Shown piece by piece: positions 1 to 24,000 of a stretch of 24,000 nucleotides of DNA (its first letter is position 1; every line of letters starts with the position of its first letter). A program made the position numbers and the translations under genes. The notes beneath the pieces are model-generated. The model was not told the DNA's origin, searched no databases, and saw only the letters and a list, made by a program, of their open reading frames with translations. Source of the DNA: Acidovorax sacchari (GTDB lineage: Bacteria > Pseudomonadota > Gammaproteobacteria > Burkholderiales > Burkholderiaceae_C); contig NZ_AP035783.1 in NCBI RefSeq assembly GCF_042847045.1, positions 3,138,937 through 3,162,936 of the forward strand, read 5' to 3'.

Positions 1-1
1 C

Positions 2-223
2 TGGGTGGTGCAGGACGACCTGCGCGCGGGCCGCCTGGTGCATGTCGTGCCGGGCTGGACGGCCGCCCCCCTGCCCGTGCATCTGGTCTATCCGCCCACC
101 CGCCACCCGCCGGCGCGCCTGCGCGTCTTCCTCGAGGCGATGCGCGAAGCGATTCCGTCGATCGCCGGCATGCAGGCGCGGCGCGTGGCACCATCCGGCC
201 CATCCTTGCGACCACGACGATGA
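2..223 (+). CDS. LysR-family transcriptional regulator, C-terminal fragment (5' end outside window)
   Basis: Open frame from the window edge to a stop at 221-223. The tail DDLRAGRLVHVVPGW..LPVHLVYPP.RH.PARLRVFLEAM is typical of a LysR substrate-binding domain C-terminus. Confidence 0.6.
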   Translation, partial: WVVQDDLRAGRLVHVVPGWTAAPLPVHLVYPPTRHPPARLRVFLEAMREAIPSIAGMQARRVAPSGPSLRPRR

Positions 224-274
224 GCCCCCCCCACACCGTCTCCCCTTCCCGACCTGGCCCCGCTGCGGGACCGG

Positions 275-1030: not shown

Positions 1031-1078
1031 CGCGCCTGCGAGACGTCCTCCGCCCGTTGCAGCGCCCTCCTGCCGGTC

Positions 1079-2590: not shown

Positions 2591-2593
2591 GGC

Positions 2594-5755: not shown

Positions 5756-5770
5756 GGTCCGGCTCCTGCT

Positions 5771-6943: not shown

Positions 6944-6951
6944 ATGCAGGG

Positions 6952-7006
6952 AATCCTTCGCGTGCAAAAAAGGCGCCACTGTGGCGCTCCACGGCTGCGA
7001 AGGATT
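6952..7006. promoter_or_regulatory. Nested palindrome in the divergent efflux/two-component intergenic region (candidate operator)
   Basis: Outer 10-bp arms are AATCCTTCGC (6952-6961) and GCGAAGGATT (6997-7006). They enclose the inner hairpin GCGCCA-CTG-TGGCGC (about 6973-6987) preceded by an A6 run. The site lies between MFP start 6943 and regulator start 7027. Confidence 0.35.
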
Positions 7007-7026
7007 GGGCGTTGTGTGGAGATGCG

Positions 7027-7809: not shown

Positions 7810-8864
7810 GCAGTTCTCCCGGCCTGCGCCGGCAGGTCATGCTGTCGCTCGGCATCATGGCGCTGGGCATCATCCTGATCTCGGTGATCGGCTCCTACGG
7901 CTTCTACGCCGTGCTAATGGCCTATTCGCCGTCGAGCATTTCCGAGACCTGGATGCCGTCCCGGGTGGAGCTGGTCTGGATTCTGGCGACCATGCTTGTC
8001 GCGCTGGCCATCGCCATCGCCGTCGCCGTGCGGCTCTCGCGCCGCATCCTCACGCCGCTGAACGCGGTGGCCGAAAGCCTGCGCAAGGTGGCCCAGGGCG
8101 ACCTGCAGGCCCGCGCCGCCACCGACGACCACTCCATGGGCGAGACCGCCCAACTGGTGCGCGACTTCAACGCCATGGCCGAACGCCTGCAGGCCATGGA
8201 AAAACAGCGCACCTTCTGGAACGCGGCCATCGCCCACGAACTGCGCACCCCCGTCACCATCCTGCACGGGCGCCTGCAGGGGCTGACGGAAGGCGTGTTC
8301 GAGCCGCGGCCCGAGTTGTTCCAGGGCCTGCTGCGCCACGTGCAGGGCCTGAGCCGGCTCATCGAAGACCTGCGCATGCTGGGCCTGCGCGACAGCGGGC
8401 ACCTGGAACTGGAGCAGATGCAGGCGGACCTGGCGCAGGAAGTCGCCTCCGTCGTGCATGCCTTCGGGCCCGACCTGCATGCGCGCGGCTTCACGGTGCA
8501 GGCCGACATCGCATCGCCCTGCACCGTCACCTGCGACCCGGTGCGCATCCGCCAGGCCCTGATCGCCCTGCTGGAAAACGTGCGCAAGCATGCCGACCCG
8601 GGCCGGGTGCGGATCCACGCGCACGTGGCGGACGGCCGGTGCCACCTCGGCGTGGAAGACGAGGGCCCGGGCATGACCGAGGAACTCGCCGCCCAGGTCT
8701 TCGAGGCCTTCCACCGCGGGGACCCCGGCCGCCCGCAACAGGCCGGCGGCAGCGGCCTGGGCCTGGCCGTGGTCAAGGCCATCGCGGAAGCCCACGGCGG
8801 CCACGCCACCTGCCAGGCCGCGCCCGGCGGTGGCTCCGTGCTCACCCTGCACTGGCCCACGTGA
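7806..8864 (+). CDS. Sensor histidine kinase (two TM helices, very short external loop, HAMP, HisKA, HATPase_c)
   Basis: H-box AIAHELRTPVT, N-box LLENVRKHA, G-boxes EDEGPGM and GSGLGLAVV. The two N-terminal hydrophobic helices are separated by only about 15 residues. Confidence 0.9.
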   Translation: MSSSPGLRRQVMLSLGIMALGIILISVIGSYGFYAVLMAYSPSSISETWMPSRVELVWILATMLVALAIAIAVAVRLSRRILTPLNAVAESLRKVAQGDLQARAATDDHSMGETAQLVRDFNAMAERLQAMEKQRTFWNAAIAHELRTPVTILHGRLQGLTEGVFEPRPELFQGLLRHVQGLSRLIEDLRMLGLRDSGHLELEQMQADLAQEVASVVHAFGPDLHARGFTVQADIASPCTVTCDPVRIRQALIALLENVRKHADPGRVRIHAHVADGRCHLGVEDEGPGMTEELAAQVFEAFHRGDPGRPQQAGGSGLGLAVVKAIAEAHGGHATCQAAPGGGSVLTLHWPT

Positions 8865-8911
8865 AAGTAGCGCTAGAATCCAGCCCGTCGTGCGCCGCAA
8901 TGGCGCCACGC

Positions 8912-8985
8912 GCGGGTGTAGTTCAATGGTAGAACGGCAGCTTCCCAAGCTTCATACGAGGGTTCGATTCCCTTCACCCGCTCCA
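8912..8985 (+). tRNA. tRNA-Gly (anticodon CCC)
   Basis: A 74-nt cloverleaf read by hand: acceptor GCGGGTG/CACCCGC, D arm GTTC/GAAC, anticodon loop TTCCCAA, T arm GAGGG-TTCGATT-CCCTT, encoded CCA. Very similar to the enterobacterial glyU type. One C-U mismatch in the anticodon stem. Confidence 0.9.
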
Positions 8986-10544
8986 CATTCCTTTCCCCCC
9001 TCTGCGGGCGCACCGCCCTCCTGCCGCTGGCCGCCCCGCCCCAGGCAGGCCCACACGGCCAGCGCCGTCACGGCCGTCACCACCGCCAGCCCCTGCGCCA
9101 GCCGCGAAAACGCCGCTTCGTAAGCCTCCACCAGCGCATGCGGGGCCACCGCCGGCACCAGGGCCATCGCATCCTCCAGCCGCCCCGCCCCCAGCAACTG
9201 CGCCACCGGATGCCCCTGCGCGGCGCCGGGCAGTCGGGCCTGGATCAGCCCCGCCAGCACGGAACCGACCACCGCCAGCGCCACGCCCTCCCCCGCCACC
9301 CGCGTGGTGCTGAAAATCCCCGCCGCCATGCCCGCGCGCTCCGGCGGCACCACGCTGACCGCGAGGCCATCCATCAGCCCCCAGGGCAGGCTGATGCCCG
9401 CACCGATCACCACCATCGCCGGCAGGGCCTGCACGCCCGTATGCGCCGCGGTCAGCCACAGCAGGCCGGCCGCGCAGGCCAGCAGCCCCACGCCACACAG
9501 CACGGCCGGCGACCACCGGCGTGCCAGCCGCCCTGCCACCAATGGCAGCACCAGCAGCGGCGCCGACAGGGCCACCATCATCCATCCCGCACGGCCCGCG
9601 CCCATCCCCTCGATGCCCGCGAAGCGCATCGGCAGCAGCACCAGCAGCACGACGAAGGCATAGGCCGGTGCAGCAGCCAGCAGCTGGATGCCGAGGAAAC
9701 GCCGGTAGCGCAGCAGCGACAGATCCAGCAGCGGCGCTACCCCACGCTGCTCGATGCGCGCGAAAACGCCGAACAGCAACCCTGCCACCGCGAGGCCGCC
9801 GATCACACCGGGATCGGCCCATCCCGCCTGCGCTGCCGCGAGCACGGCGCAGGTCAGCACGCTGAGCGCCAGCGTGAACGCCACCGCGCCGCCCGTATCG
9901 AAGGCGTGCGCCGCTGGCGCCCGGGTTTCCCGCAGCGCGCCCCGGCCCAGCAACACCGCCACGCCCATCACCCCCATCACCAGCCCGAAAATCGCCCGCC
10001 ACCCGAACGCCCCCGCCAGTGCGCCGGCCGTGACCGGCCCCAGCACCAGCCCGATGCCGAACGCCGTCCCCAGCCAGCTGAACGCGCGGGTGCGGGCCTC
10101 GCCGTCGAACTCCTGGGCCAGCGCGGCGGCGCCACCCGCGAACACCGCCGCACCCGCCAGCCCTTGCAGGCCGCGCAGCGCGTTGAACACCGCCATGCCC
10201 GTGGCGAACGGCAACGCCGCCGATGCCACGAGGAACAGCCACGCCCCCGCCATGAACACCCGGCGGCGCCCCATGCGGTCCGCCAGCGCCCCGGCCGCCA
10301 GCAGGCAACTGCCGAAGGCCAGCATGAAGGCATTCGTCACCCAGGCCAGGGACGCGGCGGACGCGTGCAGCGCGTCGGCGATGCCGCCCAGCGCCACGGC
10401 CGGCCCGGTAAACACCATCGGCATCGTCGCCGAAGCCATGCAGACGCAGGCGAGCACACGCAGGCGCCGGCCCCGCTCCGGATCGAGCGGGGTGCCGGGG
10501 GAAGCGGTAGAGAAAGTCGGGGTGTCGGAGGACAGTTGGGACAT
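8952..10544 (-). CDS. MFS transporter (drug:H+ antiporter-like, probably 14-TMS DHA2 type)
   Basis: Very hydrophobic Gly/Ala/Leu-rich ORF with MFS motif A (GALADRMGRRRVF). The start is taken at ATG 10544 (MSQLSSDTP...), leaving a ~208-bp divergent intergenic region to the LysR gene; the alternative start is 10658. The 3' end overlaps the tRNA-Gly gene on the opposite strand. Confidence 0.8.
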   Translation of the reverse strand: MSQLSSDTPTFSTASPGTPLDPERGRRLRVLACVCMASATMPMVFTGPAVALGGIADALHASAASLAWVTNAFMLAFGSCLLAAGALADRMGRRRVFMAGAWLFLVASAALPFATGMAVFNALRGLQGLAGAAVFAGGAAALAQEFDGEARTRAFSWLGTAFGIGLVLGPVTAGALAGAFGWRAIFGLVMGVMGVAVLLGRGALRETRAPAAHAFDTGGAVAFTLALSVLTCAVLAAAQAGWADPGVIGGLAVAGLLFGVFARIEQRGVAPLLDLSLLRYRRFLGIQLLAAAPAYAFVVLLVLLPMRFAGIEGMGAGRAGWMMVALSAPLLVLPLVAGRLARRWSPAVLCGVGLLACAAGLLWLTAAHTGVQALPAMVVIGAGISLPWGLMDGLAVSVVPPERAGMAAGIFSTTRVAGEGVALAVVGSVLAGLIQARLPGAAQGHPVAQLLGAGRLEDAMALVPAVAPHALVEAYEAAFSRLAQGLAVVTAVTALAVWACLGRGGQRQEGGAPAEGGKECGAGEGNRTLV

Positions 10545-10752
10545 GGTGGAAGAGCGCCCGAAGGCAGCACAGGAATGCGAGACGGCCAATAAGGGAAGGA
10601 CAAGGCCACGGCACCAAGCGGTACCAAGCCGGATGTGGCGAAGATAGAACTTCCGCATTCGATGAAAAACAGGCCCCGCCTCCGATCAATCCGGAAGAAA
10701 ATTCCGCAATCAACGCGCCCAGCGCAGTCCCACCAGAACCAGGCCACCACCC

Positions 10753-11736
10753 ATGGACACCCCCTCCAGCCTCTCCGCCCTCCTGGCCTTCGTGCGCACC
10801 GCGGAGCTGGGCAGCTTTGTCGCGGCCGGCCGCGCGCTCGGCATCTCGGCCTCGGCCGTCGGCAAGGCCGTCGCGAAGCTGGAGCAGGAACTGGGCGTGC
10901 GCCTGCTCCAGCGCAGCACCCGCCGCATCGCCCTGACGGAAGAAGGGCGGCAGTTCCACGAACGCTGCCGCCGCATCCTGGACGACCTGGACGACGCCCG
11001 CGCCATGGTGTCCCAGTCGGCCGCCGTACCACGCGGCCGCCTGCGGGTGAGCGTACCCATCGTCACCTACCACCTGCTCCTGCCCCTGCTGCCGGAGTTC
11101 CTGGAGCGCCATCCCCAGGTGGAACTGGACATCGACTTCAACGACCGCATCGTGGACCTGATCGGCGAAGGCGTGGACATCGCCATCCGCAGCGGCGACC
11201 TGCCCGATTCACGCCTCAGGAGCCTGCCCCTGCGGCACTACCGGTCCCTGCTCTGCGCATCGCCCGACTACTTGGCGCGGCGCGGCACCCCGGCCACCGT
11301 GGGCGACCTCGCGGACCACGACGGCATTGCGTTCCGCTATCCCAATTCAGGGCAGTGGCTACCCTGGCCGCTGCCGGGAACCGGAGGGGCCACGGTGCCA
11401 GAAGAGCCGCCTCCACCGCTGTCGATGTCGTCGGCGCCATCGCCATCCCCCCTGCCCCGCCTGCGCCGGGTCCTCGGGTTCAACAACATGGAGGCCGTGC
11501 GCGGCGCGGCGCTGGGCGGCCTGGGGATCGGGTGCATGCCGGATTTCCTGGTGGAGGGGCCTTTGCGGGACGGGGCCTTGCGGCAGGTGCTGCCGGATCC
11601 AGAGGGACGGCCGGCGGGACGGTTCCGGGCGGTGTGGCCGGCGAGCCGGCAGTTGTCGCCGAAGGTAAGGGTGTTTGTGGATTTTTTGAGGGGGAGGTTG
11701 GGGGATCGACAAAGAACCATTAAATCGATGGCTTGA
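10753..11736 (+). CDS. LysR-family transcriptional regulator
   Basis: N-terminal HTH (LLAFVRTAELGSFVAAGRALGISASAVGKAVAKLEQELGVRLLQRSTRR) and a LysR substrate-binding domain. Divergent from the MFS gene. Contains a Pro/Ser-rich insert (EEPPPPLSMSSAPSPSPLP). The last ~10 codons lie in AT-richer DNA. Confidence 0.9.
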   Translation: MDTPSSLSALLAFVRTAELGSFVAAGRALGISASAVGKAVAKLEQELGVRLLQRSTRRIALTEEGRQFHERCRRILDDLDDARAMVSQSAAVPRGRLRVSVPIVTYHLLLPLLPEFLERHPQVELDIDFNDRIVDLIGEGVDIAIRSGDLPDSRLRSLPLRHYRSLLCASPDYLARRGTPATVGDLADHDGIAFRYPNSGQWLPWPLPGTGGATVPEEPPPPLSMSSAPSPSPLPRLRRVLGFNNMEAVRGAALGGLGIGCMPDFLVEGPLRDGALRQVLPDPEGRPAGRFRAVWPASRQLSPKVRVFVDFLRGRLGDRQRTIKSMA

Positions 11737-11830
11737 ATTTGAAAAGCACGCCGATTACCGTCTGTGAAAGCGGGGCAACTTCAAATTCAGCTGCACTTCA
11801 GGTTTGAGACCGCCGCATGAAATGCTTTTT

Positions 11831-12301
11831 CTATTCATAGTTAGGCGCATAGGGGAATTTTTTTCTAAACTTATCAATCCACCCTCTCACAGAGGGATTA
11901 TCCCTATTTGACCCAACCTCTATCTCATTCCCATTTTTATCATACTTTACCCAATCAAGCACCCGGCCAAATTCGCAGTGAGACTTTTGAAAAACAAATC
12001 CATTTTCATACCACTCTATATTAGGACCGTGAGCCATCCCCGCAAATGACACCCACTCTTGGCTTTTTTTCCCATTCTCGTACCACCATTCACCTGGACC
12101 ATGGACCATACCATTCAAGTATGACCGCCGAGATTCCAAACGGCCATTTTTATAATAAGAAACAGCAATACCAGAAAATGGAATACCATTATACTGAAAT
12201 CCATAATGATCATCTTCCAGATCATCAATATGAACCTCTTTTTTTGGTGCCTCACGGCTCCAATCGTAAGAATCATCATGGCTGGACATAGTGGACACCA
12301 T
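11831..12301 (-). CDS. Putative immunity protein, YwqK-like MORN-variant repeat protein
   Basis: 156-aa ORF in AT-rich DNA. Repeats of the pattern G....YY.NG / NG..HG....WYENG (YYKNGRLE, NGMVHGPGEWWYENGKK, GMAHGPNIEWYENGFV). The start (12301 or 12289) overlaps the stop (12276) of the upstream deaminase-like toxin ORF. Confidence 0.6.
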   Translation of the reverse strand: MVSTMSSHDDSYDWSREAPKKEVHIDDLEDDHYGFQYNGIPFSGIAVSYYKNGRLESRRSYLNGMVHGPGEWWYENGKKSQEWVSFAGMAHGPNIEWYENGFVFQKSHCEFGRVLDWVKYDKNGNEIEVGSNRDNPSVRGWIDKFRKKFPYAPNYE

Positions 12302-14284
12302 TCAAGATATAGTCACAATGGGGGCATGCCGGCTTATACGTACCACGCATTGCAGCCGCTTTAGTCTCTATAGTAGAGACGGCTATTTCACTCAGTTTAG
12401 CACCAGGTCTCGCCAGAAGCAACTCATTCACAGCATAAATCTCCGAATGAGACCCCGCTGCAGCAGACTTTTGATAGCCTAAAAGAACTTCTTCCGGCAT
12501 TTTATCAAGCCGCGAAGTCAATGTTTCATCCATAACAGCTGGAATAGCTCCTCCCTTATTATTCAAGCCAAAACTAACCTGACCAGTCACCATATCTTGA
12601 GCGACAGTAAATGCAGGTTTCAGACTATTTAGAGATTTCCCAGCAGCTTGCATTTGCTCATAAGCCGCCACAGTCAGTTCCTTCAGAGCTTCTGCCTGCT
12701 GAAAAGTCATATCGGCTGCATTTGCATTTGACCGGAAGGCTTGAGACATCTTTATAAGAGCCCCCTCAATGCCTTCCCCAATAGCGCCACCAGCAGCTCC
12801 GAGATCTGCATTCCCAATACGCCCTAAAGCAATGCCAGCGACCACATTAAATTTGAGAGACCCGCCTGTTTGTGCTAAGTTATCGTTCTGAATTACCGGC
12901 GCCAGATTGTATACCTCACTCGATCTAAATCCTGCAAACTCTCCCTCAGCAACAACGCCTGATTTTTCTAGCAAGATGCTATAGCCATCAAGACTAGTTT
13001 TCAGCCCATTTACCGCACCATTAAATGCATCCACCCCAAAGTTAACAAAACCATTGCGAACACCTATCAATCCATCCTTCGGACTTCCAAAAACTGCAGA
13101 GCTCATACTACCAAGAGCGTATCCCACCCCCCAAACTCTGCGCTATACGAGCAGTTAAATACAGCGTTGGCGACTTAATATCAACAGCGTTATCCTGAAT
13201 ACTCTTCCAATATCGATTTATAGAATCTTGAAAAGATGATCCACTTGATTTACGAGGTCCCAAACTCCCAAAAATCGAAGCCAACGGATTAGTGATCTCT
13301 GGCTCTGGCTGTGCGGATTCCTCTCTCAGATTCGTCCGGGCTTGCTCTGCGCCCCCCGACGCCACCGCCCATGGAGCCAGCGCCGTGCCTACCGGCAGGT
13401 CATGTTGCAACACCTGGTTTGCCCGCGCTCCACTATCCCAGTCCGTATATTGCGACCACTCGTCTTGGTAAACCCCATTGCGCATTTTTCCGCCCCCCAT
13501 CATCTGCGAGTCTGCAATGAGCCAAGGTAAATAGGAACTCGCGGCTTGGTCACCGTAGTATTCCAGCGCATTACCGAATGTCATCGATGACTGGGGATGC
13601 GACTGCATGTAGTCGTATGCCGGCATGATCGGATCAACTCCGGCAGCTTGATAACGCTGCGCGATGGACTGGTTCGGATTGCCGCCGGGTTGCTGAGTCT
13701 GCGCACCTGCCAAGGCATTAGCGCCGGTATCAAGGATGGCGGCGCCCATTTGTTGTCCCAGGGCGTTCCCGAAAGCGTCCACAGCCACTTGCTGGATGCT
13801 CACCCGCCCGCCTCGCGCCACGGCCGCGGTCATACCCGCAGCCATCCCGCTGAGCGTCCCTCGGGCCCAGGCGGCTCCCGTCTGGCCAAGCCCATCGAGC
13901 CACGTAGCTCCCTGCAGCGCACTCCCGGCCGCGCTGCCCGCAGCCGCGCCCGCCGCGCTCGCGGCCACACCCCGCCAATCGAAGCGGTCTTGCAACCCCG
14001 TCGCAACGCCAATGCCCTGCGTAATCAGGTTCGTCGTGCCCATCTGCACAGCGGCGCCCTGCCAGCCCGCACTGGCTCCGCTGAAGCCCGATAGGTACTC
14101 CACTCCCGAGGCAACGCCTGCACTGATCGCCGACAACGCGAGACTCTTCCAACTGATGCCGTTCTGGGACCCCACCAGGTTGCCCATCATCTGCCCTGCG
14201 AGGTTGCCAATGACGGGGCCAGCAAAAATGCTGACCACGACACTGACGACGACCACAATGATCTGCCCGACGATCCCGCAGTCT

Positions 14285-14775
14285 CCCCCGTTCGCCGGCA
14301 CCGGCAACACCGGATCCATGCTCCCCATCGCCTGGCTCGGGTCGTACGGCTGGAACGTCTCCACGCTGTTCGCGTTCAGCGCCAGCTTGGGCACCGTCAG
14401 CGTCTGCCCCGCCGTCAGCGCCCCGTCGCCCGACACCGCCAGGCTGTTGGCGTCCGCGATGCGCCACCACAGGCTCGCGTCACCCAGCACGTTGCGCGCG
14501 ATGTCCTTGAGCGTCTCGCCACCCACTACCGTGTAGGCCACCGGGTCCAGGCTCTTGTGGCGCGGGCGGATCTGCGCGGCCTGCAGGCGGAAGTCCGCCG
14601 TGTCCACGTACGCCGGGTTGTTGGCCTGGGGCGTGTTCTCTTCCTGGGTGGGTGCGTCGCCGTAGCGCGCCAGCACCTCGCCGTTGGCGACCAGTTGGCG
14701 CTGCACGTGGCCGGGGGTCAGGGCACTGCCGGTCACCCCGCCCTGGTAGCCCGAGGCCGGGTTGGCGATGCTGCT
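14285..14775 (-). repeat. Copy C of a ~491-bp near-identical constant segment (LysM-coding region), in orphan 1
   Basis: Aligns without gaps to 17852-18342 and 22441-22931. About 10-20 mismatches per pair by hand count. Confidence 0.85.
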
Positions 14776-14873
14776 GTTCACCTCGCCTTGCGCGTTGAAC
14801 CCGCCCTGGTCGCCGCCGCGGCGCGTGAGGGCCGCGCTCTGCTGCCAGCTGCCGTTCAAGTACGTGTACTGGT

Positions 14874-14973
14874 GGGAACCTCTCAAAACCCCGATCCCGG
14901 GGACATCGTGCTCTTAAAAATCAACGAGTTACGGCGCTCCAGCCTGCGAATTCGGAGGTTTTGAGAGGTTCCC
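14874..14973. mobile_element. 100-bp MITE-like insertion with perfect 17-bp terminal inverted repeats and a 4-bp target duplication
   Basis: GGGAACCTCTCAAAACC (14874-14890) pairs with GGTTTTGAGAGGTTCCC (14957-14973). TGGT flanks both sides (14870-14873 and 14974-14977). The uninterrupted site in the main gene reads GTGTACTGGTAGGTCG (about 23203-23218). Confidence 0.7.
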
Positions 14974-15329
14974 TGGTAGGTCGTCGTGGTGGTACCGCCG
15001 TCTCCGTCCTGCCGCACGCCTTTCAGGTTGCCAGCCGCGTCGTACCCCAGGCCCGTCACGCCGCCGGCATCGTGGTACGCCACATCCGAGCGCTGCGACA
15101 CTTTCTGATTCCGACTCCTGAATTAGGGGTCGATCTCATGTTGAGCCTCCGGGGAACTCGAAGCGGCTTACACGGTGCTGGACTGCGCCCAAAAGGCGGT
15201 GGCGATAATCGCCCGCTCATCATTGCTGGACCAGCGATAACGTGAGGCGATCCTCAGGCTGAAGTGTGTATTGCAAAATTATCCGAGGCTCAGGCGTTGC
15301 ACTTCAAATTTGAGACCGCCCCATATATC

Positions 15330-15422
15330 CGGGGCGAAGGCGGAGCACCCGTTCCGGGTGATCAAGCAGCAGGTCGGTCACGCCAAGGTGCGCTATCGGG
15401 GGGCTGTCCAAGAACAAGGTCA
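15330..15422 (+). mobile_element. IS5-family transposase gene remnant (3' fragment)
   Basis: Translates to [26 protein letters not shown], against [29 protein letters not shown] in the intact IS5-family transposase at 18829-19791. There is no upstream transposase sequence. Confidence 0.6.
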
Positions 15423-15424
15423 GG

Positions 15425-15763
15425 TCACTTCGGCGCCAGTTTCGGGGGCAAAGAGTTCAACCAAGGAATTTCATCGTCTTCCTTGTCTTGCAGTATGGCG
15501 GCCATCTCAGCTGCGGTCAGCCAAACACCATGAGCATCTACATAGAATGCCTCTCCATTTACGAGAGATACCTCCTTGGAAATGGCTCGAAGATTTCTCC
15601 TAACAAGAAGTTCATTTGAGACCCTCTCCGTAAATGAAAACAATCCTTCGACCGTTGGCATCTCGCGCTCGTCCTGCAGAACGAAGCTTCGGGAACCTGT
15701 GGCTGACTGGATCAGAAGCAAACGATAGCGTTGGTCACTACAAATATCTGACGGCTTCCACAT
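15425..15763 (-). CDS. Putative immunity protein for orphan toxin 2 (no recognisable family)
   Basis: The start is taken at ATG 15763 (MWKPSDICSDQRY...) with a strong GAAGGAG 6 nt upstream, 12 nt after the toxin stop (15775-15777). 112 aa, AT-richer than the flanks. The longer tracked ORF (to 15823) would overlap the toxin. Confidence 0.6.
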   Translation of the reverse strand: MWKPSDICSDQRYRLLLIQSATGSRSFVLQDEREMPTVEGLFSFTERVSNELLVRRNLRAISKEVSLVNGEAFYVDAHGVWLTAAEMAAILQDKEDDEIPWLNSLPPKLAPK

Positions 15764-15774
15764 CTTGCGCTCCT

Positions 15775-18610
15775 TCAAAACCGGACACCAGGGAATGCCG
15801 AGGATTGCTCGCCAAGGCTCCAAGGCATACCAGAGTATACGGGTGTTCCGTCTTGGAAGGTCGCGGAACGAACGTCTCTAACAACACCGCGCATGGTCGA
15901 GAAATTAATCGCGCCACCTTGATGCTGAATCTCCGCCAAGCGCGCCAAGGCTTCTGCGCGTTGAGACCCAACCACGCCAAGCTCGTGAATCCCCTCATGA
16001 ATAGCTGTGGATGCAACCTCGGCATTCGATGAGTGCGCAGGCAAATATACCTTGGCCTTCGTCTCAAAGGCATAGCCCTTCATTCCAGTGTCGACTGTGC
16101 CGTTAACTCCTTGCTGGAAATAGCTCTTGGAAAACTCGAGCCTAAATCGATTGGTTTGTGCGGCATGGAGAACCTGCCTGCCAATTTCAGAAGTCGCCAT
16201 GTTGTCCAGCACAGCCTGCTGATCGAACCACGAAACATTTCGGCTGAGGCTTCCATCCCGCGTGACAATGGAGGCCGCAGTGTTTGTATTACCGAATTGC
16301 AGTTGAGGCCTAGTTTTAGCACCAAGGTCAACTGCAGAAGCCTCTGTTTGGACCAAAAAGCTCCGCGTAGCAGGCGTACGCGTAATCCCCATAGGAACAA
16401 CGGCCGCTCCCGCAAAATTTAAGCCGAGCCCGAGGCCCTCCCGCGTCAACCCACGCACATCACCGTTCATCGCGGCAGTGGTCAAGCCGTAGGCACCGGT
16501 GCCCGCGTGGTAAACCATCCCGAGCGGCGAGACATTGAAAACGTTCACTCCGGTGGCTTTGATACCTTCCCAGGTACCTGCATCTCCATTCACCACGCTG
16601 TCGGCATAGGAACTCAACGGGATTATTGGCTTGTAATCCCCTGTAACTGCGCCGTGCAACGCCTTCAAGCCGGTCTGCGCCAAATCGGCGAGCGGTGCGA
16701 CCGTGAGGTCCGCCAACCCCACTATCATCCCTGCCATAACATCACCGACACCGCCAGCGATCGCGCGCAACATCGGGGGAATCTCGATTGTGAAAGGCTC
16801 GAAGATCGGCGTCACGGTTTCGCGAATCACACTATTGCGGTTCAATGCCGCTGTTATTTCTTCATCGCGCAACCGATCAAGATCTTTCATGTCGGCTTTA
16901 GCCTTAGCCAGCATTGCATCAACGGAGGGCCCAGCCCCCTTTTCGGTGATGTATACCGTACGCCCACGCTGCTCGATCGAGACAGGGCCGCGTCCCATCG
17001 TGAATCCATCACCGGCTGCCAGCAGTACGTCATTGCTGCGATCCACCGGCGGCGTCGAGCCATCGCCGACGGCGCCCACGAACTACTGCATCTGCGGGAA
17101 GTTTGGCTCATACGGCTTGCCAAATACGATGTGTTCGCCGGTATCCGGGTCCACATACGGACTGGATCCAGTTCCTTGGCCTCGATAGCTGCCACCATTG
17201 CTTGCTGTCGCCAGAGAGTTCCCCAATGCATTCCCAAACGCATCAGTCGCCACCTGCTGCACGCTGACACGCCCGCCCTTCAGCACCGCCGTGGTCATCC
17301 CTGCAGCAAAGCCCGACACGGTTCCACGCGCCAACCCCGTCGCGAAATCGCTGCCCCAGCTTCCGAACGCGTTGGCTTTGTCCAGAGCGCTGCCTACGGA
17401 AGCTCCCACGCCGGCGCCGATAGCGCCAGCCACCACCCCCTTCCAGTCGAAGCGTGGCTGCAGGCCCAGCACGGTGCCGATGCCTTGGGAGATCGTGCCC
17501 GAGACAGCCTGCTTCATCGCCGCATTGCCGAAGGTGCCCAGGTCGGACAACCAGCTGGGGTTGCCCAATCCCGCGGTCACTCCGCTACTCACGGCTGCGA
17601 GCCCCACGCTTTTCCAATTGAAGCCCTTCTGCGCGCCAATGGCGATGCCAACAGCCTGGCTGGCGACCGATCCCACGGCCCCGGCGACCGCTCCTTCGGC
17701 GATGGTCATGCCTCCAGGCAACATGGCCTGGGCGCCGGCCACGAGCGTCTCGCCCAAGGCTCCGGAAGCCCCGGTGAGCAACCCCGCCGTGTAGATCGTC
17801 GCGACCACTGCGATGACGATCATGATGATCGCCCCGATCCCCCCGCACCCGCCCCCGTTTGCCGGCACCGGCAACACCGGGTCCATGCTCCCCATCGCCT
17901 GGCTCGGGTCGTACGGCTGGAACGTCTCCACGCTGTTCGCATTCAGCGCCAGCTTGGGCACCGTCAGCGTCTGCCCCGCCGTCAGCGCCCCGTCGCCCGA
18001 CACCGCCAGGCTGTTGGCGTCCGCGATGCGCCACCACAGGCTCGCGTCGCCCAGCACGTTGCGCGCGATGTCTTTCAGCGTCTCGCCCCCCACCACCGTG
18101 TAGGCCACCGGGTCCAGGCTCTTGTGGCGCGGGCGGATCTGCGCGGCCTGCAGGCGGAAGTCGGCCGTGTCCACGTACGCCGGGTTGTTGGTCTGGGGCG
18201 TGTTCTCCTCCTGGGTGGGTGCGTCGCCGTAGCGCGCCAGCACTTCGCCGTTCGCGACCAGCTGGCGCTGCACGTGGCCGGGGGTCAGGGCGCTTCCCGT
18301 CACCCCGCCCTGGTAGCCCGAGGCCGGGTTGGCGATGCTGCTGTTGACCTCGGTCTTCTTGTTGAACCCGCCCTGGCTCACGAACACCGCCGTGCCGTTG
18401 GCGTCGTTCACGAACATGCGGTCGTAGCGCGCGTCGTTGCTCGTGGCCTGCGTCGCCTGGTTCGTCAGCGCTGCCGCCAGGCTTCCGTCCGGGGCCTGCG
18501 CCGCGCTGCCCGTCACCTTCGGCTGGCGGATGCCCACCACGAAGCCGTTGGCGTCGCGCTGCGTGATCGTGCCCACCACGTCGCCCTGCCGGGTGATGGA
18601 GAGAAGCTGC
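15775..18610 (-). pseudogene. Orphan toxin cassette 2: 5'-truncated YD/LysM/TM/Gly-zipper module with an HExxH-containing C-terminal domain, split by an in-frame TAG
   Basis: ORFs 17083-18579 and 15775-17079 are in the same frame, separated only by TAG (17083-17085): ...NFPQMQ*FVGAVGDGS.... HEGIH lies at 15985-15999. The 5' end is cut by an IS remnant at about 18611. Confidence 0.75.
17852..18342 (-). repeat. Copy B of a ~491-bp near-identical constant segment, in orphan 2
   Basis: Same as copy C. Identity with the main gene extends further on both sides (about 17795-18440 against 22378-23030). Confidence 0.85.
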
Positions 18611-18757
18611 GGCTGGTTGACGAGGTTCCGCAGGCTCTCAAGGAACTATGAGCGGTTACCAGAGGTGCTTGGCGGACTGCATTTCTGGTCTTCGCAGTGC
18701 TCATGTTGCCCGCCGCCGTGAGCGTACTGGCTACTGCGTGAAGCTCATAACATGCTC
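18611..18757 (+). mobile_element. Remnant of a second IS5-superfamily transposase (C-terminal end only)
   Basis: Translates to GWLTRFRRLSRNYERLPEVLGGLHFWSSQ, matching the conserved C-terminal GWL.R.RRL..DYER.PE motif of DDE_Tnp_1-type (IS5/IS427/IS1031-like) transposases. It abuts the truncated 5' end of orphan 2. Confidence 0.55.
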
Positions 18758-18760
18758 TAA

Positions 18761-19938
18761 GGAAGGTCTGCATAAACCGCCCCACGACATGCTTGGCATT
18801 GTCGTGAAGCCCTGAGACGATACGTCGCATGAAACAGCACAGCTTGGGCCTGGGAATGACGGCGAAGCGAACGCGGCGGCGGGAATTCCTGGATGAGATG
18901 GAGAAGGTCGTACCTTGGGCTGAACTGGTGGCCCTGGTGTCGCCGTACCTGCCCGAAGGCAAGCGGGGGCGTCCTCCGTTCCCGTGCGAGACCATGCTGC
19001 GCATCCATTTCATGCAGCAGTGGTTCGCGCTGAGCGACCCGGCCATGGAAGAAGCGCGGCACGACATGCCGGTGTTCCGCGAGTTCGCAGGGCTCGAGGG
19101 CTGGGATGAGCGGCTGCCCGACGAGAGCACGATCCTGAGGTTCCGACACCTGCTGGAGAAACACAAGCTGGCGGCGCAAATCCTGCAGACCGTCAACGAT
19201 CTGCTCAGCGCCAAGGGCGTGATGCTCAAGAGCGGCACGGTGGTGGACGCCACCTTGATCGCAGCGCCCAGTTCGACCAAGAACAGCAGCGGCGAGCGCG
19301 ACCCGGAGATGAAGCAAAGCCGCAAGGGGCAGCAGTGGTACTTCGGTATGAAGTGCCATATCGGAGTGGACGCCGACTCGGGCCTGGTACACACCGTGCG
19401 CGGCACCAGCGGCGCGGTCAATGATGTGATCGAGGCCAACAGTCTAGTGCGCGCAAGCGACCACGATGTCTATGCCGATGCTGGCTACCAAGGTGCCGGC
19501 CAACGCCCTGATGCCAGGCGCGACGTGAACTGGCACATCGCCATGCGGCCGGGCAAACGTCGCCTGCTGGATCCGGCCAAACCGATCGAAGCCTTGACCC
19601 GGCAACTCGAGCGCGTGAAGGCGGGCATCCGCGCGCGGGTCGAACACCCGTTCCGCGTTCTCAAGCGCCAGTTCGGGCATGCCAAGGTGCGCTACCGAGG
19701 GCTGGCCAAGAACACGGCACAGCTGCACACGCTGTTTGCGTTGGCCAATCTCTGGCTGGTGCGGCGCAAATTGCTGGCTGCCTTGGCATGAGTGCGCCCG
19801 CAGTTCGCCAAGCAGGCCACCTCGGCTGCCAATCCGCAGCCGCGGACGCTTGAACTGGGGTGAAATAGGCCTTTGCCGCGTTGCAGATCGATAGGTTTAG
19901 ACGTCAGCACGCTTATGCGTGTGTTGTGCAGACCTTCC
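18761..19938 (+). mobile_element. Intact IS5-family (IS5 group) insertion sequence, 1178 bp
   Basis: IRL is GGAAGGTCTGCATAAACC (18761-18778); IRR is the reverse complement GGAAGGTCTGCACAACAC (19921-19938). A 4-bp CTAA target duplication sits at 18757-18760 and 19939-19942, fitting the IS5 YTAR target preference. Single transposase ORF. Confidence 0.9.
18829..19791 (+). CDS. IS5-family DDE transposase
   Basis: 320 aa, collinear with E. coli IS5 InsH motifs: ETMLRIHFMQQWF.LSD.AMEE, VDATLIAAPSSTKN, RDPEM.Q..KG.QW.FGMK.HIGVDA.SGL, ADAGYQGA, RARVEHPFR..KRQFG..K.RY.GL.KN. Confidence 0.9.
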   Translation: MKQHSLGLGMTAKRTRRREFLDEMEKVVPWAELVALVSPYLPEGKRGRPPFPCETMLRIHFMQQWFALSDPAMEEARHDMPVFREFAGLEGWDERLPDESTILRFRHLLEKHKLAAQILQTVNDLLSAKGVMLKSGTVVDATLIAAPSSTKNSSGERDPEMKQSRKGQQWYFGMKCHIGVDADSGLVHTVRGTSGAVNDVIEANSLVRASDHDVYADAGYQGAGQRPDARRDVNWHIAMRPGKRRLLDPAKPIEALTRQLERVKAGIRARVEHPFRVLKRQFGHAKVRYRGLAKNTAQLHTLFALANLWLVRRKLLAALA

Positions 19939-20475
19939 CTAAGGTGTGCCACCCTTATTGCGTTTGAGCCAATAGTCAATTGCTTGTTGTTGGTATTTTT
20001 TGAAACTAACAAACATTTGATTAAAATCTTCGAACTCTTCAACCAATTCATTAGTAACCCACAGGACCTTGGGCTGCACCTGTCCGCGCTCCCGAATCAT
20101 TAGCAATAAGTCGGTACTAGAAGAACTCTTTGCAATGGGCAGCATGCTAGAGCGCTGCTTTGCGTAGCTGCCTAGTGCTCCTCTATGCATCATATTTACC
20201 CACTCCTGCGCTTGTCGAAATCGATTGGAGCCGCAGAAATCAGGAGTACCAAACAAATCTATGTCTGCAGAGAAATTATTCCATCCATTTGCATGCAGCA
20301 AGAAATCAACATGTTGACAATCAAACCTTCCCGCAATAGCTCTTTCTGCCGCGTCGATATCGACTGGCATAGCATGAGCTTCGAATGGTAGTGCTTTAAT
20401 GACTCCATTAGACGCAAGCTCCTCTTCTTTGTGCAATCGATCAAAATCCAATAACTCAACTGCCCAATTAATCAT
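19939..20475 (-). CDS. Putative immunity protein, SUKH/SMI1-KNR4-like
   Basis: 178 aa in AT-rich DNA. The start overlaps the toxin stop (TAATG at 20473-20477). SUKH-like pattern: AERAIAGRFDCQHVDFLLHANGW, then LPIAKSSSSTDLLLM and VLWVTNELVEEFEDF. Confidence 0.65.
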   Translation of the reverse strand: MINWAVELLDFDRLHKEEELASNGVIKALPFEAHAMPVDIDAAERAIAGRFDCQHVDFLLHANGWNNFSADIDLFGTPDFCGSNRFRQAQEWVNMMHRGALGSYAKQRSSMLPIAKSSSSTDLLLMIRERGQVQPKVLWVTNELVEEFEDFNQMFVSFKKYQQQAIDYWLKRNKGGTP

Positions 20476-23400
20476 TACATCCCCTTGAGAACAAAACCAC
20501 TTGGCTTAAATCCTATTGGATAACGTCCTGCCTGCCCGCCAAGAGAGCTATTTACGCGCCAGTCTTGATCTATCCAGCGGTAAGCACCTGGCTTACCAGT
20601 CCAAGTTGTATCTGGGCCGTGCCCAACAACACCTTGATATGGCCGCCCTTGCTGTTCCGCCAAAGCCCTCTCAGCAGCGATTGCTCGGTTGGCTTCCATC
20701 CGTAATGCCCCGTTTGTAGAAACCCTTCCCGTTGGCGACAAATAGCCTGCATTCAGGGCTTCATTTGCAACTTGGGTGTACAGATTATAGTCTGCTTTCT
20801 GTGCTGCGGTTGCCCAGAAAGGAACACGTACTTCGACTATGCCGGACATTTTCAATCCGGTTGGCACAAGTCCAGAGCCTAGCGTACCTGCCACACCTGC
20901 ATAATTATAATTAAATGGATTAATTAAGTAAGTGGCGCGATCAATAAAATTAGAAGCCTGAATTAATCCATTAAATGCCGAATCTGGCAACGCATTGACT
21001 GTATAGCGCATCCCTGCCCCAACTCCTTTTGCGCCAATGCCAACACCCCACCCCAAAGCGGCCCCGGCAACTTGTTCGCCCAAGAAGCCACCTTCCATTG
21101 CTCCAGCGGTAGCAAATTCGCCACGCCGGGAATTAACAAACATTTGGCGCACACTATTCTGCATACCATATGCAGCACTCTCTAGTGCCTCCAAAGGGCG
21201 TGTAGTCAAGCCATATAAATACTTTGGAATATTGGGTAAGGTTTCAGCAAAAAATCCCACAAAACCTTTGACCGCACCACCTACATAGTTACTTGAATAT
21301 TCCCATATTTGTGTGAACCCAAGCTCTGGACTTACACCTAAGCCCATCTGCGAAGACAAACGCAATTTGGATATTTCTAGCGAGTAATCAGCATTGACAC
21401 TGTAGTCAGAATTTGATTTATACGAAAATGGATTAGTCCCCACCTTAAGGCCCGACCCGGAAAGCCCTGCCTTGCTATTGAGCTTGAGCGACACTTCCTC
21501 AAGGCTCCAGTCATCACCATACCCGGCCTGCTGCATGCGGTAGGCCATCATTTCGGCGGGGGTGACTGAATCACTGATGGAGGAACCACCCCTAGCTAGT
21601 ATGTGTTCTTTCTGACGAGAGTAGTAAGCGTTGTCGCTCTCCAAATCTGAGCCATTGACGTAATCCCGTTCAGACCATGGTCCTATGCCCTGCAGCTCAT
21701 CGGGCTGCGTGCCGGGCTTGCTCATTACGTCCGCGAGTGAGTGTCCCAACGCATTGCCAAACGCATCTGTGGCTATTTGCTGAACGCTGATTCGCCCGCC
21801 TCTCGCCACAGCAGTGGTGAGTCCTGCAGCAACTCCACTCAACGTCGCTTTGCCAATAGATTCCAATCCGAACGACTGGTCGATCCGCACGCCGTTAGCG
21901 TCCGTCAAGCCAAACGCATTGTTCATGCCCCAGCCCACGCCGGCTCCCGCAGCGCTTGCCGCCACGCTCTTCCAGCTGAAGCTGCTCTGCAGGCCCGTGG
22001 CCACGCCGATGCCTTGCGCGAGCACACTGCTCGCAGCAGCCCGGGCCACCGTCACCCCGAGGGTCGTTCCACCCAGCAGGCTGGTGCCCGCCAGTCCTCC
22101 GGACACCCCTCCGCTCAATGCAGACAGCGCCACGCCCTTCCAGCTGAAGCCATCCTGCGCACCGATCGCATTGCCGACCGCCTGGCTGACGATCGACCCC
22201 ATCGCGCCGCCTGCCACGCCGGCAGCTATTCCTGCACCTATGCCGGCTCCGCCTCCCAAGACACTGGCCCCTGCGGCCATGGTGGCGGCAAACCCTCCAC
22301 CAGTAGTGGTGCCCGCCAATGTTGCTGCGCCCAGGGCATTCGAGCCCAGCGAGCCTGCGGCAGCCAGTGCGCCAGCCGTATAGATCGTCACCACCACGGC
22401 GATGACGATCATGATGATCGCCCCGATCCCCCCGCACCCGCCCCCGTTCGCCGGCACCGGCAACACCGGATCCATGCTCCCCATCGCCTGGCTCGGATCG
22501 TACGGCTGGAACGTCTCCACGCTGTTCGCATTCAGCGCCAGCTTGGGCACCGTCAGCGTCTGCCCTGCCGTCAAGACGCCGTCGCCCGACACCGCCAGGC
22601 TGTTGGCGTCCGCGATGCGCCACCACAGGCTCGCGTCGCCCAGCACGTTGCGCGCGATGTCTTTCAGCGTCTCGCCGCCCACCACCGTGTAGGCCACCGG
22701 GTCCAGGCTCTTGTGGCGCGGGCGGATCTGCGCGGCCTGCAGGCGGAAGTCGGCCGTGTCCACGTACGCCGGGTTGTTGGTCTGGGGCGTGTTCTCCTCC
22801 TGGGTGGGGGCGTCGCCGTAGCGCGCCAGCACCTCGCCGTTGGCGACCAGCTGGCGCTGCACGTGGCCGGGGGTCAGGGCGCTGCCCGTCACCCCGCCCT
22901 GGTAGCCCGAGGCCGGGTTGGCGATGCTGCTCTTGACTTCGCCGATATCGTTGTAGCCGCCCTGGCTCACGAATACCGCCGTGCCGTTCGCGTCGTTCAC
23001 GAACGTGCGGTCGTAGCGCACGTCGTTCAGCTTGGGCCGGTTCAGCTCTGCCATGATCCAGTCCGTTCCCCCCTGCGCTTCCGCCTTGGGCTGGCGGATG
23101 CCGACCACGAAGCCGTTGGCGTCGCGTTGCGTCACCGTCGCTACCTGCGTGCTGCCGCGGTTCGTCACCGCCGCGCTCTGCTGCCAGCTGCCGTTCAAGT
23201 ACGTGTACTGGTAGGTCGTCGTCGTGGCTCCGCCGTCCCCGTCCTGGCGTACGCCTTTCAGGTTGCCTGCGGCGTCGTACCCCAGGCCCGTCACGCCACC
23301 CGCATCGTGGTACGCCACATCCGAGCGCTGCGACACCTCCTGGTTGTCGCCCGTCTTGGAACTGCGCACCACGGTGTGCACGTCCTGCAGCTTGCCCGTG

Positions 23401-24000
23401 GCGTCATACTGGTTGTAGCGGTACTCGTAGCTGCCGCCGTCCTCGCCGATCAACGTGCGGGCTACCACCTGCCGGCCCGCGCCGTCGTACAGGATACGGT
23501 CCATTTGATCGCTCGCGCCATCGCCGCGGTAATAGTCGATGCGGTGCAGATCGTCATAGGTATAGGTATAGGTCTTCTTGAGCTTGCCGTCCGGAGACCC
23601 GGGGTTATTGTCCGTTTTCGGAATGGGTGGCCCGCTGTAGGTCTGGTCCATGATGCGGTTGCCCGCCAGGTCATAGCTGTACCTGTGGGTCTCGATGGCG
23701 CCAGTGACGGAGGACGTCTGCCGGCTCCAGATCTGCCGGTTCATACCGTCGTACAGGAAGTCCGTGGTGTCGGTATGCACCACCTGCCGCTCCTGCAGTC
23801 CGCCCTGGTCCGTGGTCGTGCGGATCGTGTTGATGACGTGCGTCGTCACCTTCTGGCGGTTGCCCCCCAGGTCATAGGTGATGCGCACGTCCGAGCGCCC
23901 GTCGAACACCGCCCGCAGCCGGTGCTGCGCGTCATACACCAGGTGGTTGTCCTGGTACACCACGTCGTCCAGCAGCCCGGAGGTGAGCAGCGTCTTCTGC
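20475..24000 (-). CDS. Large YD-repeat polymorphic toxin, 3' part (N-terminus outside window): YD repeats, LysM, TM helix, Gly-zipper region, variable C-terminal toxin
   Basis: The frame is open to the window edge. Repeated YD motifs (YDAQHRL, YDLGGNR, YDGMNRQ, YDLAGNR, YDDLHRI, YDGAGRQ, YDATGKL, YDAAGNL). LysM (YTVVGGETLKDIARNVLGDASLWWRIADANSL....GQTLTVP). TM helix GGIGAIIMIVIAVVVTIYTAG. GC content drops after the junction motif at 21744-21800. Confidence 0.85.
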   Translation of the reverse strand, partial: QKTLLTSGLLDDVVYQDNHLVYDAQHRLRAVFDGRSDVRITYDLGGNRQKVTTHVINTIRTTTDQGGLQERQVVHTDTTDFLYDGMNRQIWSRQTSSVTGAIETHRYSYDLAGNRIMDQTYSGPPIPKTDNNPGSPDGKLKKTYTYTYDDLHRIDYYRGDGASDQMDRILYDGAGRQVVARTLIGEDGGSYEYRYNQYDATGKLQDVHTVVRSSKTGDNQEVSQRSDVAYHDAGGVTGLGYDAAGNLKGVRQDGDGGATTTTYQYTYLNGSWQQSAAVTNRGSTQVATVTQRDANGFVVGIRQPKAEAQGGTDWIMAELNRPKLNDVRYDRTFVNDANGTAVFVSQGGYNDIGEVKSSIANPASGYQGGVTGSALTPGHVQRQLVANGEVLARYGDAPTQEENTPQTNNPAYVDTADFRLQAAQIRPRHKSLDPVAYTVVGGETLKDIARNVLGDASLWWRIADANSLAVSGDGVLTAGQTLTVPKLALNANSVETFQPYDPSQAMGSMDPVLPVPANGGGCGGIGAIIMIVIAVVVTIYTAGALAAAGSLGSNALGAATLAGTTTGGGFAATMAAGASVLGGGAGIGAGIAAGVAGGAMGSIVSQAVGNAIGAQDGFSWKGVALSALSGGVSGGLAGTSLLGGTTLGVTVARAAASSVLAQGIGVATGLQSSFSWKSVAASAAGAGVGWGMNNAFGLTDANGVRIDQSFGLESIGKATLSGVAAGLTTAVARGGRISVQQIATDAFGNALGHSLADVMSKPGTQPDELQGIGPWSERDYVNGSDLESDNAYYSRQKEHILARGGSSISDSVTPAEMMAYRMQQAGYGDDWSLEEVSLKLNSKAGLSGSGLKVGTNPFSYKSNSDYSVNADYSLEISKLRLSSQMGLGVSPELGFTQIWEYSSNYVGGAVKGFVGFFAETLPNIPKYLYGLTTRPLEALESAAYGMQNSVRQMFVNSRRGEFATAGAMEGGFLGEQVAGAALGWGVGIGAKGVGAGMRYTVNALPDSAFNGLIQASNFIDRATYLINPFNYNYAGVAGTLGSGLVPTGLKMSGIVEVRVPFWATAAQKADYNLYTQVANEALNAGYLSPTGRVSTNGALRMEANRAIAAERALAEQQGRPYQGVVGHGPDTTWTGKPGAYRWIDQDWRVNSSLGGQAGRYPIGFKPSGFVLKGM
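22441..22931 (-). repeat. Copy A of a ~491-bp near-identical constant segment, in the main toxin gene
   Basis: Same as copies B and C. Encodes SSIANPASGYQGGVTGSALTPGHVQRQLVANGE...LysM...DPVLPVPANGG. Confidence 0.85.

Follow-up and report, generated by a model that had tools for sequence, protein, structure and literature searches.

Known orphan toxin arrays and the Acidovorax sacchari locus

Orphan toxin/immunity arrays are textbook features of Rhs and CdiA loci. In the Rhs loci of Escherichia coli, Salmonella, Dickeya and Serratia with orphan rhs-CT/rhsI modules (CT, C-terminal toxin region), a YD-repeat carrier is followed after a conserved junction by a variable toxin with an overlapping immunity gene, and 5'-truncated copies with part of the constant region, an AT-richer tip and an immunity gene are placed further along with insertion sequence (IS) elements between the cassettes. 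CdiA-CT/CdiI orphan arrays are composed of tandem CT/immunity modules that keep a piece of the upstream conserved sequence, and the cytoplasm-entry domains of the two-domain CdiA-CT are reportedly exchangeable. The 24,000-nucleotide stretch of DNA analyzed here, termed the window and used for all numbering, comes from Acidovorax sacchari, the sugarcane red stripe agent, the description of which is based on two strains (PMC11797039). Its minus strand carries a toxin locus from position 11831 to beyond 24000 that resembles both kinds of array, and with a probability of roughly 0.8 this is the 3' end of an A. sacchari polymorphic toxin locus with an orphan array.

Two smaller systems are related to individual cassettes. 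The YwqJ/YwqK pair of Bacillus subtilis consists of an LXG deaminase toxin and an antitoxin of the COG2849 MORN-variant family, and orphan 1 of the window similarly has a deaminase followed by a MORN_2 protein of ~150 amino acids. Unlike YwqJ, the deaminase belongs to a YD/LysM scaffold in a beta-proteobacterium rather than to an LXG/type VII secretion system protein, and it is disabled by an upstream frameshift. The SUKH (SMI1/KNR4) proteins are immunity proteins of polymorphic toxin systems (PMC3482391), matched in the window by a 178-amino acid protein directly after the main toxin; in a difference with the SUKH models this protein scores under the Pfam cut-off (20.7 versus 25.4 bits), and its partner toxin belongs to a family without a Pfam model.

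Organization of the locus

The features of the toxin locus are as follows.

20475-24000 and beyond the window, minus strand: 3' end of the main toxin gene, last 1,174 codons (open reading frame and annotation)
22372-24000, minus strand: constant region within the window, YD repeats and then LysM (22545-22691), source of both orphan copies (Pfam, blastn)
21744-22427, minus strand: pre-toxin module (hydropathy and motif scan)
20865-21743, minus strand: variable mid domain of the main C-terminus, no Pfam match
20478-20864, minus strand: main toxin tip, family without a Pfam model
19939-20475, minus strand: main immunity gene, probable SUKH-1 (SMI1/KNR4) family, 178 amino acids, start overlapping the toxin stop
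15775-18595, minus strand: orphan 2, 5'-truncated copy, single frame broken by a TAG
15778-16206, minus strand: orphan 2 toxin tip, rare family
15425-15763, minus strand: orphan 2 immunity gene (immO2), 112 amino acids, intact, with an end-to-end homologue
12276-15125, minus strand: orphan 1, 5'-truncated copy with three lesions (alignment to the main gene and the Paracidovorax avenae orphan)
13127-13132, minus strand: frameshift of orphan 1 in a G6 homopolymer (C6 on the plus strand; three-frame translation)
11815-13258, minus strand: low-GC terminal cassette of orphan 1, YwqJ-like deaminase and immunity gene, GC 0.41-0.46
11831-12301, minus strand: orphan 1 immunity gene, YwqK-like MORN_2 protein, 152-156 amino acids, intact (MORN_2 31.9 bits)

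The original prediction, made from the DNA letters, had given the minus-strand order as main toxin, SUKH-like immunity gene, IS5 element, IS fragment, orphan 2, small immunity open reading frame (ORF), IS5 fragment, orphan 1 and YwqK-like immunity gene. All of these elements are present in that order, with one intact main toxin/immunity pair followed by two broken orphan toxins whose immunity ORFs are whole, and the layout is indeed the orphan-cassette architecture known from Rhs and CdiA. A 183-nucleotide deletion in orphan 1, an IS30-like fragment at 15169-15321 and the length of the main gene product (7,881 amino acids) are additional to that prediction.

Both orphans restart inside the constant region of the main gene, as had been proposed. 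In blastn alignments 18570-17783 of orphan 2 corresponds to main 23138-22372 at 90.5% identity over 788 nucleotides, and orphan 1 is aligned in two blocks, 14809-14234 with main 22965-22390 (92.0% over 576 nucleotides) and 15110-14973 with main 23345-23208 (90.6%); these repeat matches are far beyond chance. Each orphan then ends in a different, AT-richer tail followed by a small ORF. In a genome with a GC content of ~70%, the constant parts have a GC fraction of 0.67-0.70, compared with 0.41-0.57 for the immunity genes and the variable tails. The window has three tip/ORF pairs, either overlapping or 12 nucleotides apart, and the parts of an orphan CT/immunity cassette array are all found: 5'-truncated copies, a part of the constant region, a distinct tail and an immunity gene. 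Hidden Markov model searches of the modules, a check that the prediction had called for, matched RHS_repeat, LysM, the YwqJ deaminase and MORN_2, together with SMI1_KNR4 below threshold.

The whole main gene is annotated in the A. sacchari chromosome AP035784.1. Its product contains Big_3_5, many RHS_repeat (YD/RHS repeats matched by PF05593 and TIGR01643), TEN_YD-shell, three DUF5648 and LysM domains. The pre-toxin module that follows LysM is formed by a transmembrane-like, strongly hydrophobic segment (22371-22427), a Gly/Ala/Ser-rich region of ~210 amino acids and the junction DAFGNALG (21744-21767), and it is conserved at ~65% nucleotide identity between the main and orphan copies.

The carrier differs substantially from both Rhs and CdiA. 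Unlike Rhs proteins, which have the Rhs core and a PxxxxDPxGL aspartyl-protease junction, it has LysM, a hydrophobic helix and a Gly/Ala-rich region to DAFGNALG in their place, in a 7,881-amino acid protein with Big_3_5 and DUF5648 domains for which no PAAR or VgrG link was seen. No NCBIfam model of the Rhs-associated core matches the 1,174-amino acid C-terminal part, and a motif scan finds neither PxxxxDPxGL nor DPxG in the last ~3,333 amino acids. In another difference, with CdiA, the same ~3,333 amino acids and a complete relative from Xylophilus contain no VENN motif, filamentous hemagglutinin (FHA) repeats or two-partner secretion (TPS) domain; cdiB, vgrG and hcp are absent from the window and from the neighborhood of a Ramlibacter family member, and no type VI secretion system (T6SS) genes were seen downstream of the main gene. 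The view that the carrier is not a canonical Rhs protein is therefore upheld, and a canonical Rhs or CdiA locus was rejected as a candidate for the visible part, its defining features having been looked for and found missing there.

Main toxin tip and its immunity partner

The mid domain of the main C-terminus is ~30% identical to its counterpart in Acidovorax sp. LjRoot129 (contig L006), which bears a different tip. As in the two-domain CdiA-CT, a mid domain is common to proteins with different catalytic tips, and by analogy it may be an entry or translocation domain. No Pfam match was obtained for the mid domains of the window, nor for immO2, at E values up to 1.

The main tip belongs to a family with 67 homologues, some of which are placed after PT-HINT, PAAR-like DUF4280 or RHS modules. 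The conserved motif is LSPTGRVST...GHxPDTTWTG...VNSSLGGQ with invariant S/T/G/R/V...H...D...W residues; His-102 and Asp-105 are invariant and Asn-125 is near-invariant. The tip has no sequence-level match in the PDB and no Pfam match at E values up to 1. Its AlphaFold2 model has a pLDDT of 89, and the best fold match in the PDB is the NucB nuclease (E 0.11, probability 0.69), followed by weak matches to the HNH domains of Cascade (E above 1). A nuclease is thus the probable assignment at moderate confidence, possibly one of the beta-beta-alpha-metal (bba-Me) type.

The main immunity ORF is aligned with 120 of the 125 positions of the PF09346 model (E 6.6e-4). The same tip occurs in Cupriavidus and Pseudomonas (contigs L087 and L088), where it is adjoined by SMI1_KNR4 genes with precomputed PF09346 matches, and the window protein aligns over its full length with these proteins.

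Orphan 2

Orphan 2 is composed of a constant part, LysM (17956-18102), a Gly-rich part, the junction (17221-17244), a mid domain and the tip. The inactivating TAG is at 17080-17082, where the intact relatives on contig L007 and in protein P0026 of contig L091 have CAG (glutamine). Over its first 250 amino acids the tail shares 84% identity with a protein of Acidovorax sp. PRC11 that bears another tip.

Only six homologues of the orphan 2 tip are present among 5.8 billion proteins. The tip motif is TAIHEGxHxLGVxGSxRAEAxxRxxE, with HEGxH...E invariant in 7 sequences, and there is a weak match to Pfam DUF6782 (E 0.0028). The tip model is of low confidence (pLDDT 59), with weak fold matches that are mostly zincins (E 0.2-2), and the tip is described here as a putative zincin metallopeptidase. 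Searches of PDB sequences with single proteins and with profiles gave nothing significant for this tip, nor for the deaminase and the MORN protein of orphan 1. In metagenome contig L084 a tip with 69% identity is followed by a 116-amino acid ORF to which the immO2 protein is 52% identical end to end, and an immO2-type gene also follows P0026 in L091.

Orphan 1

Orphan 1 and the intact orphan of P. avenae share their starting point, ...SQRSDVAYHDAGG, and in orphan 1 LysM is at 14389-14535 and the junction at 13756-13779. Its three lesions are an insertion of a putative 98-bp miniature inverted-repeat transposable element (MITE), the 183-nucleotide in-frame deletion and the one-base frameshift; the 283-amino acid ORF downstream of the frameshift is also called in an independent read assembly. 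Assembly error was considered for both the frameshift and the TAG of orphan 2 and was rejected, the same broken ORFs being found in the annotations of two strains and in the independent read assembly. Mid domains with 77-80% identity to that of orphan 1 occur with other tips in P. citrulli and P. avenae.

The deaminase ORF (12276-13127) scores 51.9 bits with PF14431 (cut-off 25.9; E 1.1e-13), and the zinc motif is present as SHSE...ACPHC (H-x-E, C-x-x-C). The start of the MORN_2 immunity ORF overlaps the deaminase stop, and its four closest homologues (149-151 amino acids, 43-50% identity) align end to end.

Polymorphism of the family and comparison with P. avenae

The junction motif ...GGRxSxQQxAxDAFGNALG is found in 62 of 90 family proteins. 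The tails after it form 53 groups by their extreme C termini, so that the C-terminal polymorphism is real, and the Pfam toxin domains at the C termini of relatives include CdiA tRNase, EndoU, Tox-HNH and ART-HYD1. A conserved region followed by highly variable C-terminal toxins, the mark of a polymorphic toxin system (Zhang/Aravind 2012), is therefore observed, and the small immunity gene after each tip co-varies with that tip, as in the SMI1_KNR4 pairs and in the orphan 2 pairs of L084 and L091.

Homologues occur in Paracidovorax, Acidovorax, Variovorax, Xylophilus, Ramlibacter, Massilia, Duganella and other genera, with the sole annotation "LysM peptidoglycan-binding domain-containing protein", and in the literature no description of the LysM/YD family was found. 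The main genes of the family encode 4,287 to 7,921 amino acids, with Big_3_5 immunoglobulin-like domains and DUF5648 modules among the YD repeats (contigs L080 1-10001, L082, L083, L006 and L017). Tandem orphans are also present in Acidovorax sp. NCPPB 2350 and in metagenome contig L084.

The syntenic locus of P. avenae has a main gene for 7,921 amino acids with a different tail, a 113-amino acid immunity gene different from that in the window, and a single intact orphan of 928 amino acids. Orphan 1 and the P. avenae orphan are 94.5% identical in nucleotides over 14809-13259. Homology to the P. avenae contig (L082) ends at 13259 and restarts at 11814, with a different tip and immunity gene between these points, indicating that the deaminase/MORN cassette (11815-13258) is a swap. 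The cross-genome comparison that the original prediction proposed as a check thus shows that the C termini are not fixed at this locus, the main tip, its immunity gene and the orphan cassette all differing in P. avenae.

The main genes of A. sacchari and P. avenae are strongly mosaic, with 50-99% identity in 150-nucleotide windows. Main 22390-23345, compared with L082 9974-10920 and 5692-7351, shows 93% identity with the P. avenae orphan against 64-94% (mostly 64-84%) with the main gene of that species, a pattern that suggests a past orphan-to-main exchange in one lineage. A single breakpoint for the main/orphan mosaic was rejected, as the identity profile against P. avenae is patchy.

Insertion sequences and flanking genes

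The mobile elements of the locus are as follows.

18761-19938, plus strand: complete IS5-family element, transposase 18829-19791 (NF033581, 327 bits)
~18596-18760, plus strand: remnant of a second IS5-family element (transposase C terminus and element end, translation ...LTRFRRLSRNYERLPEV), abutting the truncated 5' end of orphan 2
15343-15419, plus strand: 77-bp IS5 transposase gene fragment, 82% identical to IS5 positions 882-957
15169-15321, minus strand: decayed 5' fragment of an IS30-like element, 73% identical to the IS30 transposase start in L091, with stops in its translation
14875-14972, no strand assigned: putative 98-bp MITE breaking the orphan 1 frame (main-gene alignment, repeat self-match)

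The complete element has the features of the IS5 family, with a DDE transposase, inverted repeats (GGAAGGTCTGC) and a 4-bp YTAR target duplication, here CTAA at 18757-18760 and 19939-19942. The SUKH immunity gene has its stop codon within the insertion site CTAA/TTAG, and the protein is unchanged because the target duplication restores this stop codon. The insertion parts the main toxin/immunity pair from everything downstream.

Once the IS5 element is removed, the remnant at 18596-18760 is directly after the main immunity gene. In L091, a contig of a metagenome-assembled genome, a sequence with 83% identity to this remnant comes directly after the orphan-2-type immunity gene and (5941-6244) runs straight into the IS30 start. 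The pieces contiguous in L091 flank the orphan 2 cassette in the window, one at 18596-18760 and the other at 15169-15321, upstream of orphan 1. This split hints at the route of cassette insertion, or at IS ends acting as cassette boundaries.

The terminal inverted repeats of the MITE (GGAACCTCTCAAAACC) are 16 bp long and perfect, the target duplication (ACCAG) is 5-6 bp, and a single copy is present in the window. A P. cattleyae contig bearing a family orphan has at its end an element that starts with the terminal repeat of the MITE (GGGAACCTCTCAAAACC; L003 4590-4605). This element may be the parent IS of the MITE, with a different interior; it was rejected as a second MITE copy, only one terminal repeat matching.

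Positions 1-11800 contain a resistance-nodulation-division (RND) efflux operon, a two-component system, tRNA-Gly(CCC), a major facilitator superfamily (MFS) transporter and a LysR regulator, all syntenic with P. avenae CP156079 at 98.6% identity. Rfam and tRNA scans of the window found only the tRNA-Gly, away from the toxin locus; it is placed at 8912-8985 (anticodon CCC) between the two-component system and the MFS gene. The LysR regulator (10753-11736) has 327 amino acids compared with 320 in P. avenae, with a short insertion near ...PLPGTGGATVPEEPP..., and its synonymous divergence (dS 0.08) is above that of the AcrB gene (dS 0.02). Many long antisense ORFs are present in this part of the window, e.g. 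4241-7294 on the plus strand (1,017 amino acids, no Pfam match); they are not genes but an artefact that is usual at 70% GC.

Proposed mechanism and alternative explanations

In the proposed mechanism the giant YD-repeat protein ends in LysM, the hydrophobic helix and the Gly/Ala-rich region closed by GGRxSxQQxAxDAFGNALG, followed by a replaceable two-part C terminus with a mid domain of ~250-300 amino acids and a catalytic tip of ~125-180 amino acids. The immunity gene overlapping the toxin stop would shield the producer. The orphans would be older or horizontally acquired C-terminal cassettes, each with 0.6-0.95 kb of constant region, a tail and an immunity gene, and set apart from one another by insertion sequences. 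The main tip, probably a nuclease with a SUKH-1 partner, would be the only deliverable tip at present, the metallopeptidase-like tip of orphan 2 having been cut off by a recent nonsense codon and the deaminase tip of orphan 1 by the frameshift. Recombination of the orphans into the main gene would bring these lesions along, and the orphan immunity genes, if transcribed, would guard against neighbors delivering those toxins.

Several points weigh against a functional toxin locus with a protective orphan array. Toxicity, specific protection, secretion, the expression of the orphan immunity genes, the entry role of the mid domains and the route of export and delivery are inferred. Motifs and weak fold matches (E 0.1-2) are the basis of the nuclease and metallopeptidase assignments. 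The window does not reach the N terminus of the main protein, and the complete relatives are without a signal peptide or known secretion domain, the Xylophilus relative also being without PAAR by Pfam; no secretion genes adjoin the compact Ramlibacter member. The intact immunity genes beside broken toxins could also be due to chance. With one inactivating lesion per cassette, and with toxin and immunity targets of 1.4 versus 0.34 kb and 2.0 versus 0.47 kb, the chance that both lesions fall in the toxin parts, which are roughly four-fold larger, is ~0.65. A promoter/terminator scan found 8 promoter-like sites against 3.9 +/- 2.1 expected, which is no meaningful enrichment and leaves expression of the orphan immunity genes unsupported.

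The complete relatives from Xylophilus and Ramlibacter (L014 812-1100; P0048) have a common N terminus MVAIVSG(N/S)SLGL..., then ...NGNLVLQ.RD...RTYNSQG, the Xylophilus protein beginning MVAIVSGNSLGL...; a fragment of an ATP-binding cassette (ABC) ATPase gene is directly upstream of the latter.

These points bear most directly on a neutral explanation in which the orphans and their immunity genes are decaying leftovers of C-terminal replacements, with immunity ORFs that are intact only on account of their small size and with no function for anything beyond the first immunity gene. This explanation is possible, though clearly less probable than a functional array, and besides the lesion chance and the lack of promoter enrichment it is favored by the five IS or MITE pieces in the region. 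The ratio of nonsynonymous to synonymous substitution rates (dN/dS) points in both directions. For orphan 2, compared with the intact orphan-2-type cassette in L091 (P0026, 87.9% nucleotide identity), dN/dS is 0.076 in immO2 and 0.148 in the toxin tail, a difference that is not significant (Fisher p = 0.34); the low immO2 value speaks against neutrality, and that of the toxin indicates purifying selection until recently and a young CAG-to-TAG change. The raised value for orphan 1 (0.40 compared with 0.10-0.13 in the flanks) fits neutral decay. All three immunity proteins, as had been claimed, are intact and full length against their homologues, and orphan immunity genes protect in Rhs and CDI systems (PMC10539506), both of which argue against neutrality. 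The further claim in the original prediction, that intact immunity beside broken toxins fits selection for retained immunity, is nevertheless not established given the ~65% chance expectation and the nonsignificant dN/dS difference. Less probable again is a silent-cassette reservoir, in which the orphans serve recombination into the main gene for toxin switching and the lesions are incidental and reversible. The homology blocks of 576-788 nucleotides at 90-92% identity upstream of each variable tail, and the greater similarity of main 23345-22390 to the P. avenae orphan than to the P. avenae main gene, are suited to such exchange, which is established in the literature for Rhs orphans. However, the TAG and the frameshift lie downstream of the homology blocks, where a crossover would import a truncated toxin, so that neither orphan can currently donate a working tip, and the same ORFs are present in both described strains (PMC11797039).

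Unlikely, too, is that the orphan pairs are internal toxin-antitoxin modules expressed from internal starts, neither delivery cassettes nor defence. GTG start codons are available to the orphan 2 tail ORF (15775-17079) and, after the frameshift, to the deaminase ORF, in which HSE...CPHC is retained, and such a module has been reported for a Salmonella Rhs orphan (PMC7043789); against this, no promoter or ribosome-binding evidence was found for these ORFs, and ORF calling in a frame-shifted gene may have produced these starts by accident. The least probable explanation, largely refuted for the visible part, is an ordinary Rhs effector locus with T6SS delivery or a CdiA/CdiB locus. It would account for the YD/RHS repeats, the polymorphic C terminus, the immunity gene and the orphans, and Acidovorax citrulli delivers Rhs effectors by T6SS (PMC10989746). 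The missing Rhs core, DPxG-type junction, VENN, FHA and TPS features and the missing vgrG, hcp and cdiB genes described above stand against it, as do the lack of PAAR or any other secretion domain in the complete Xylophilus relative and a length of 7,881 amino acids, far above the typical size of an Rhs effector. The polymorphic toxin locus with an orphan array is thus retained as the preferred explanation.

Implications for the family and for A. sacchari

The locus applies the logic of the Rhs and CdiA arrays to a different and uncharacterized carrier, which implies that cassette displacement is independent of the Rhs core or of known secretion adaptors. It adds a widespread and a very rare toxin-tip family, neither of which has a Pfam model and both of which are paired with a cognate immunity protein. 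The modularity of the mid domain, possibly a determinant of cell entry, is also supported here by natural examples.

A broader and tentative proposal is that the LysM/hydrophobic helix/Gly-Ala-rich/DAFGNALG module is an undescribed device for toxin presentation and translocation, replacing the Rhs core and plug in giant YD-repeat proteins (4,000-8,000 amino acids) of Comamonadaceae and Oxalobacteraceae that have no signal peptide or type V secretion system/T6SS link, with an exchangeable entry domain and catalytic tip. If true, the proposal would add a new class to the interbacterial toxin delivery systems, one with cassette-exchange rules of its own. Boundaries at IS ends are perhaps one such rule, since one IS remnant is found after two distinct immunity genes.

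With flanks that are 98.6% identical, the A. sacchari/P. avenae pair makes the gain, swap and decay of cassettes datable. The hosts of these plant pathogens include sugarcane, rice and cucurbits, and such loci probably shape the coexistence of strains on the host.

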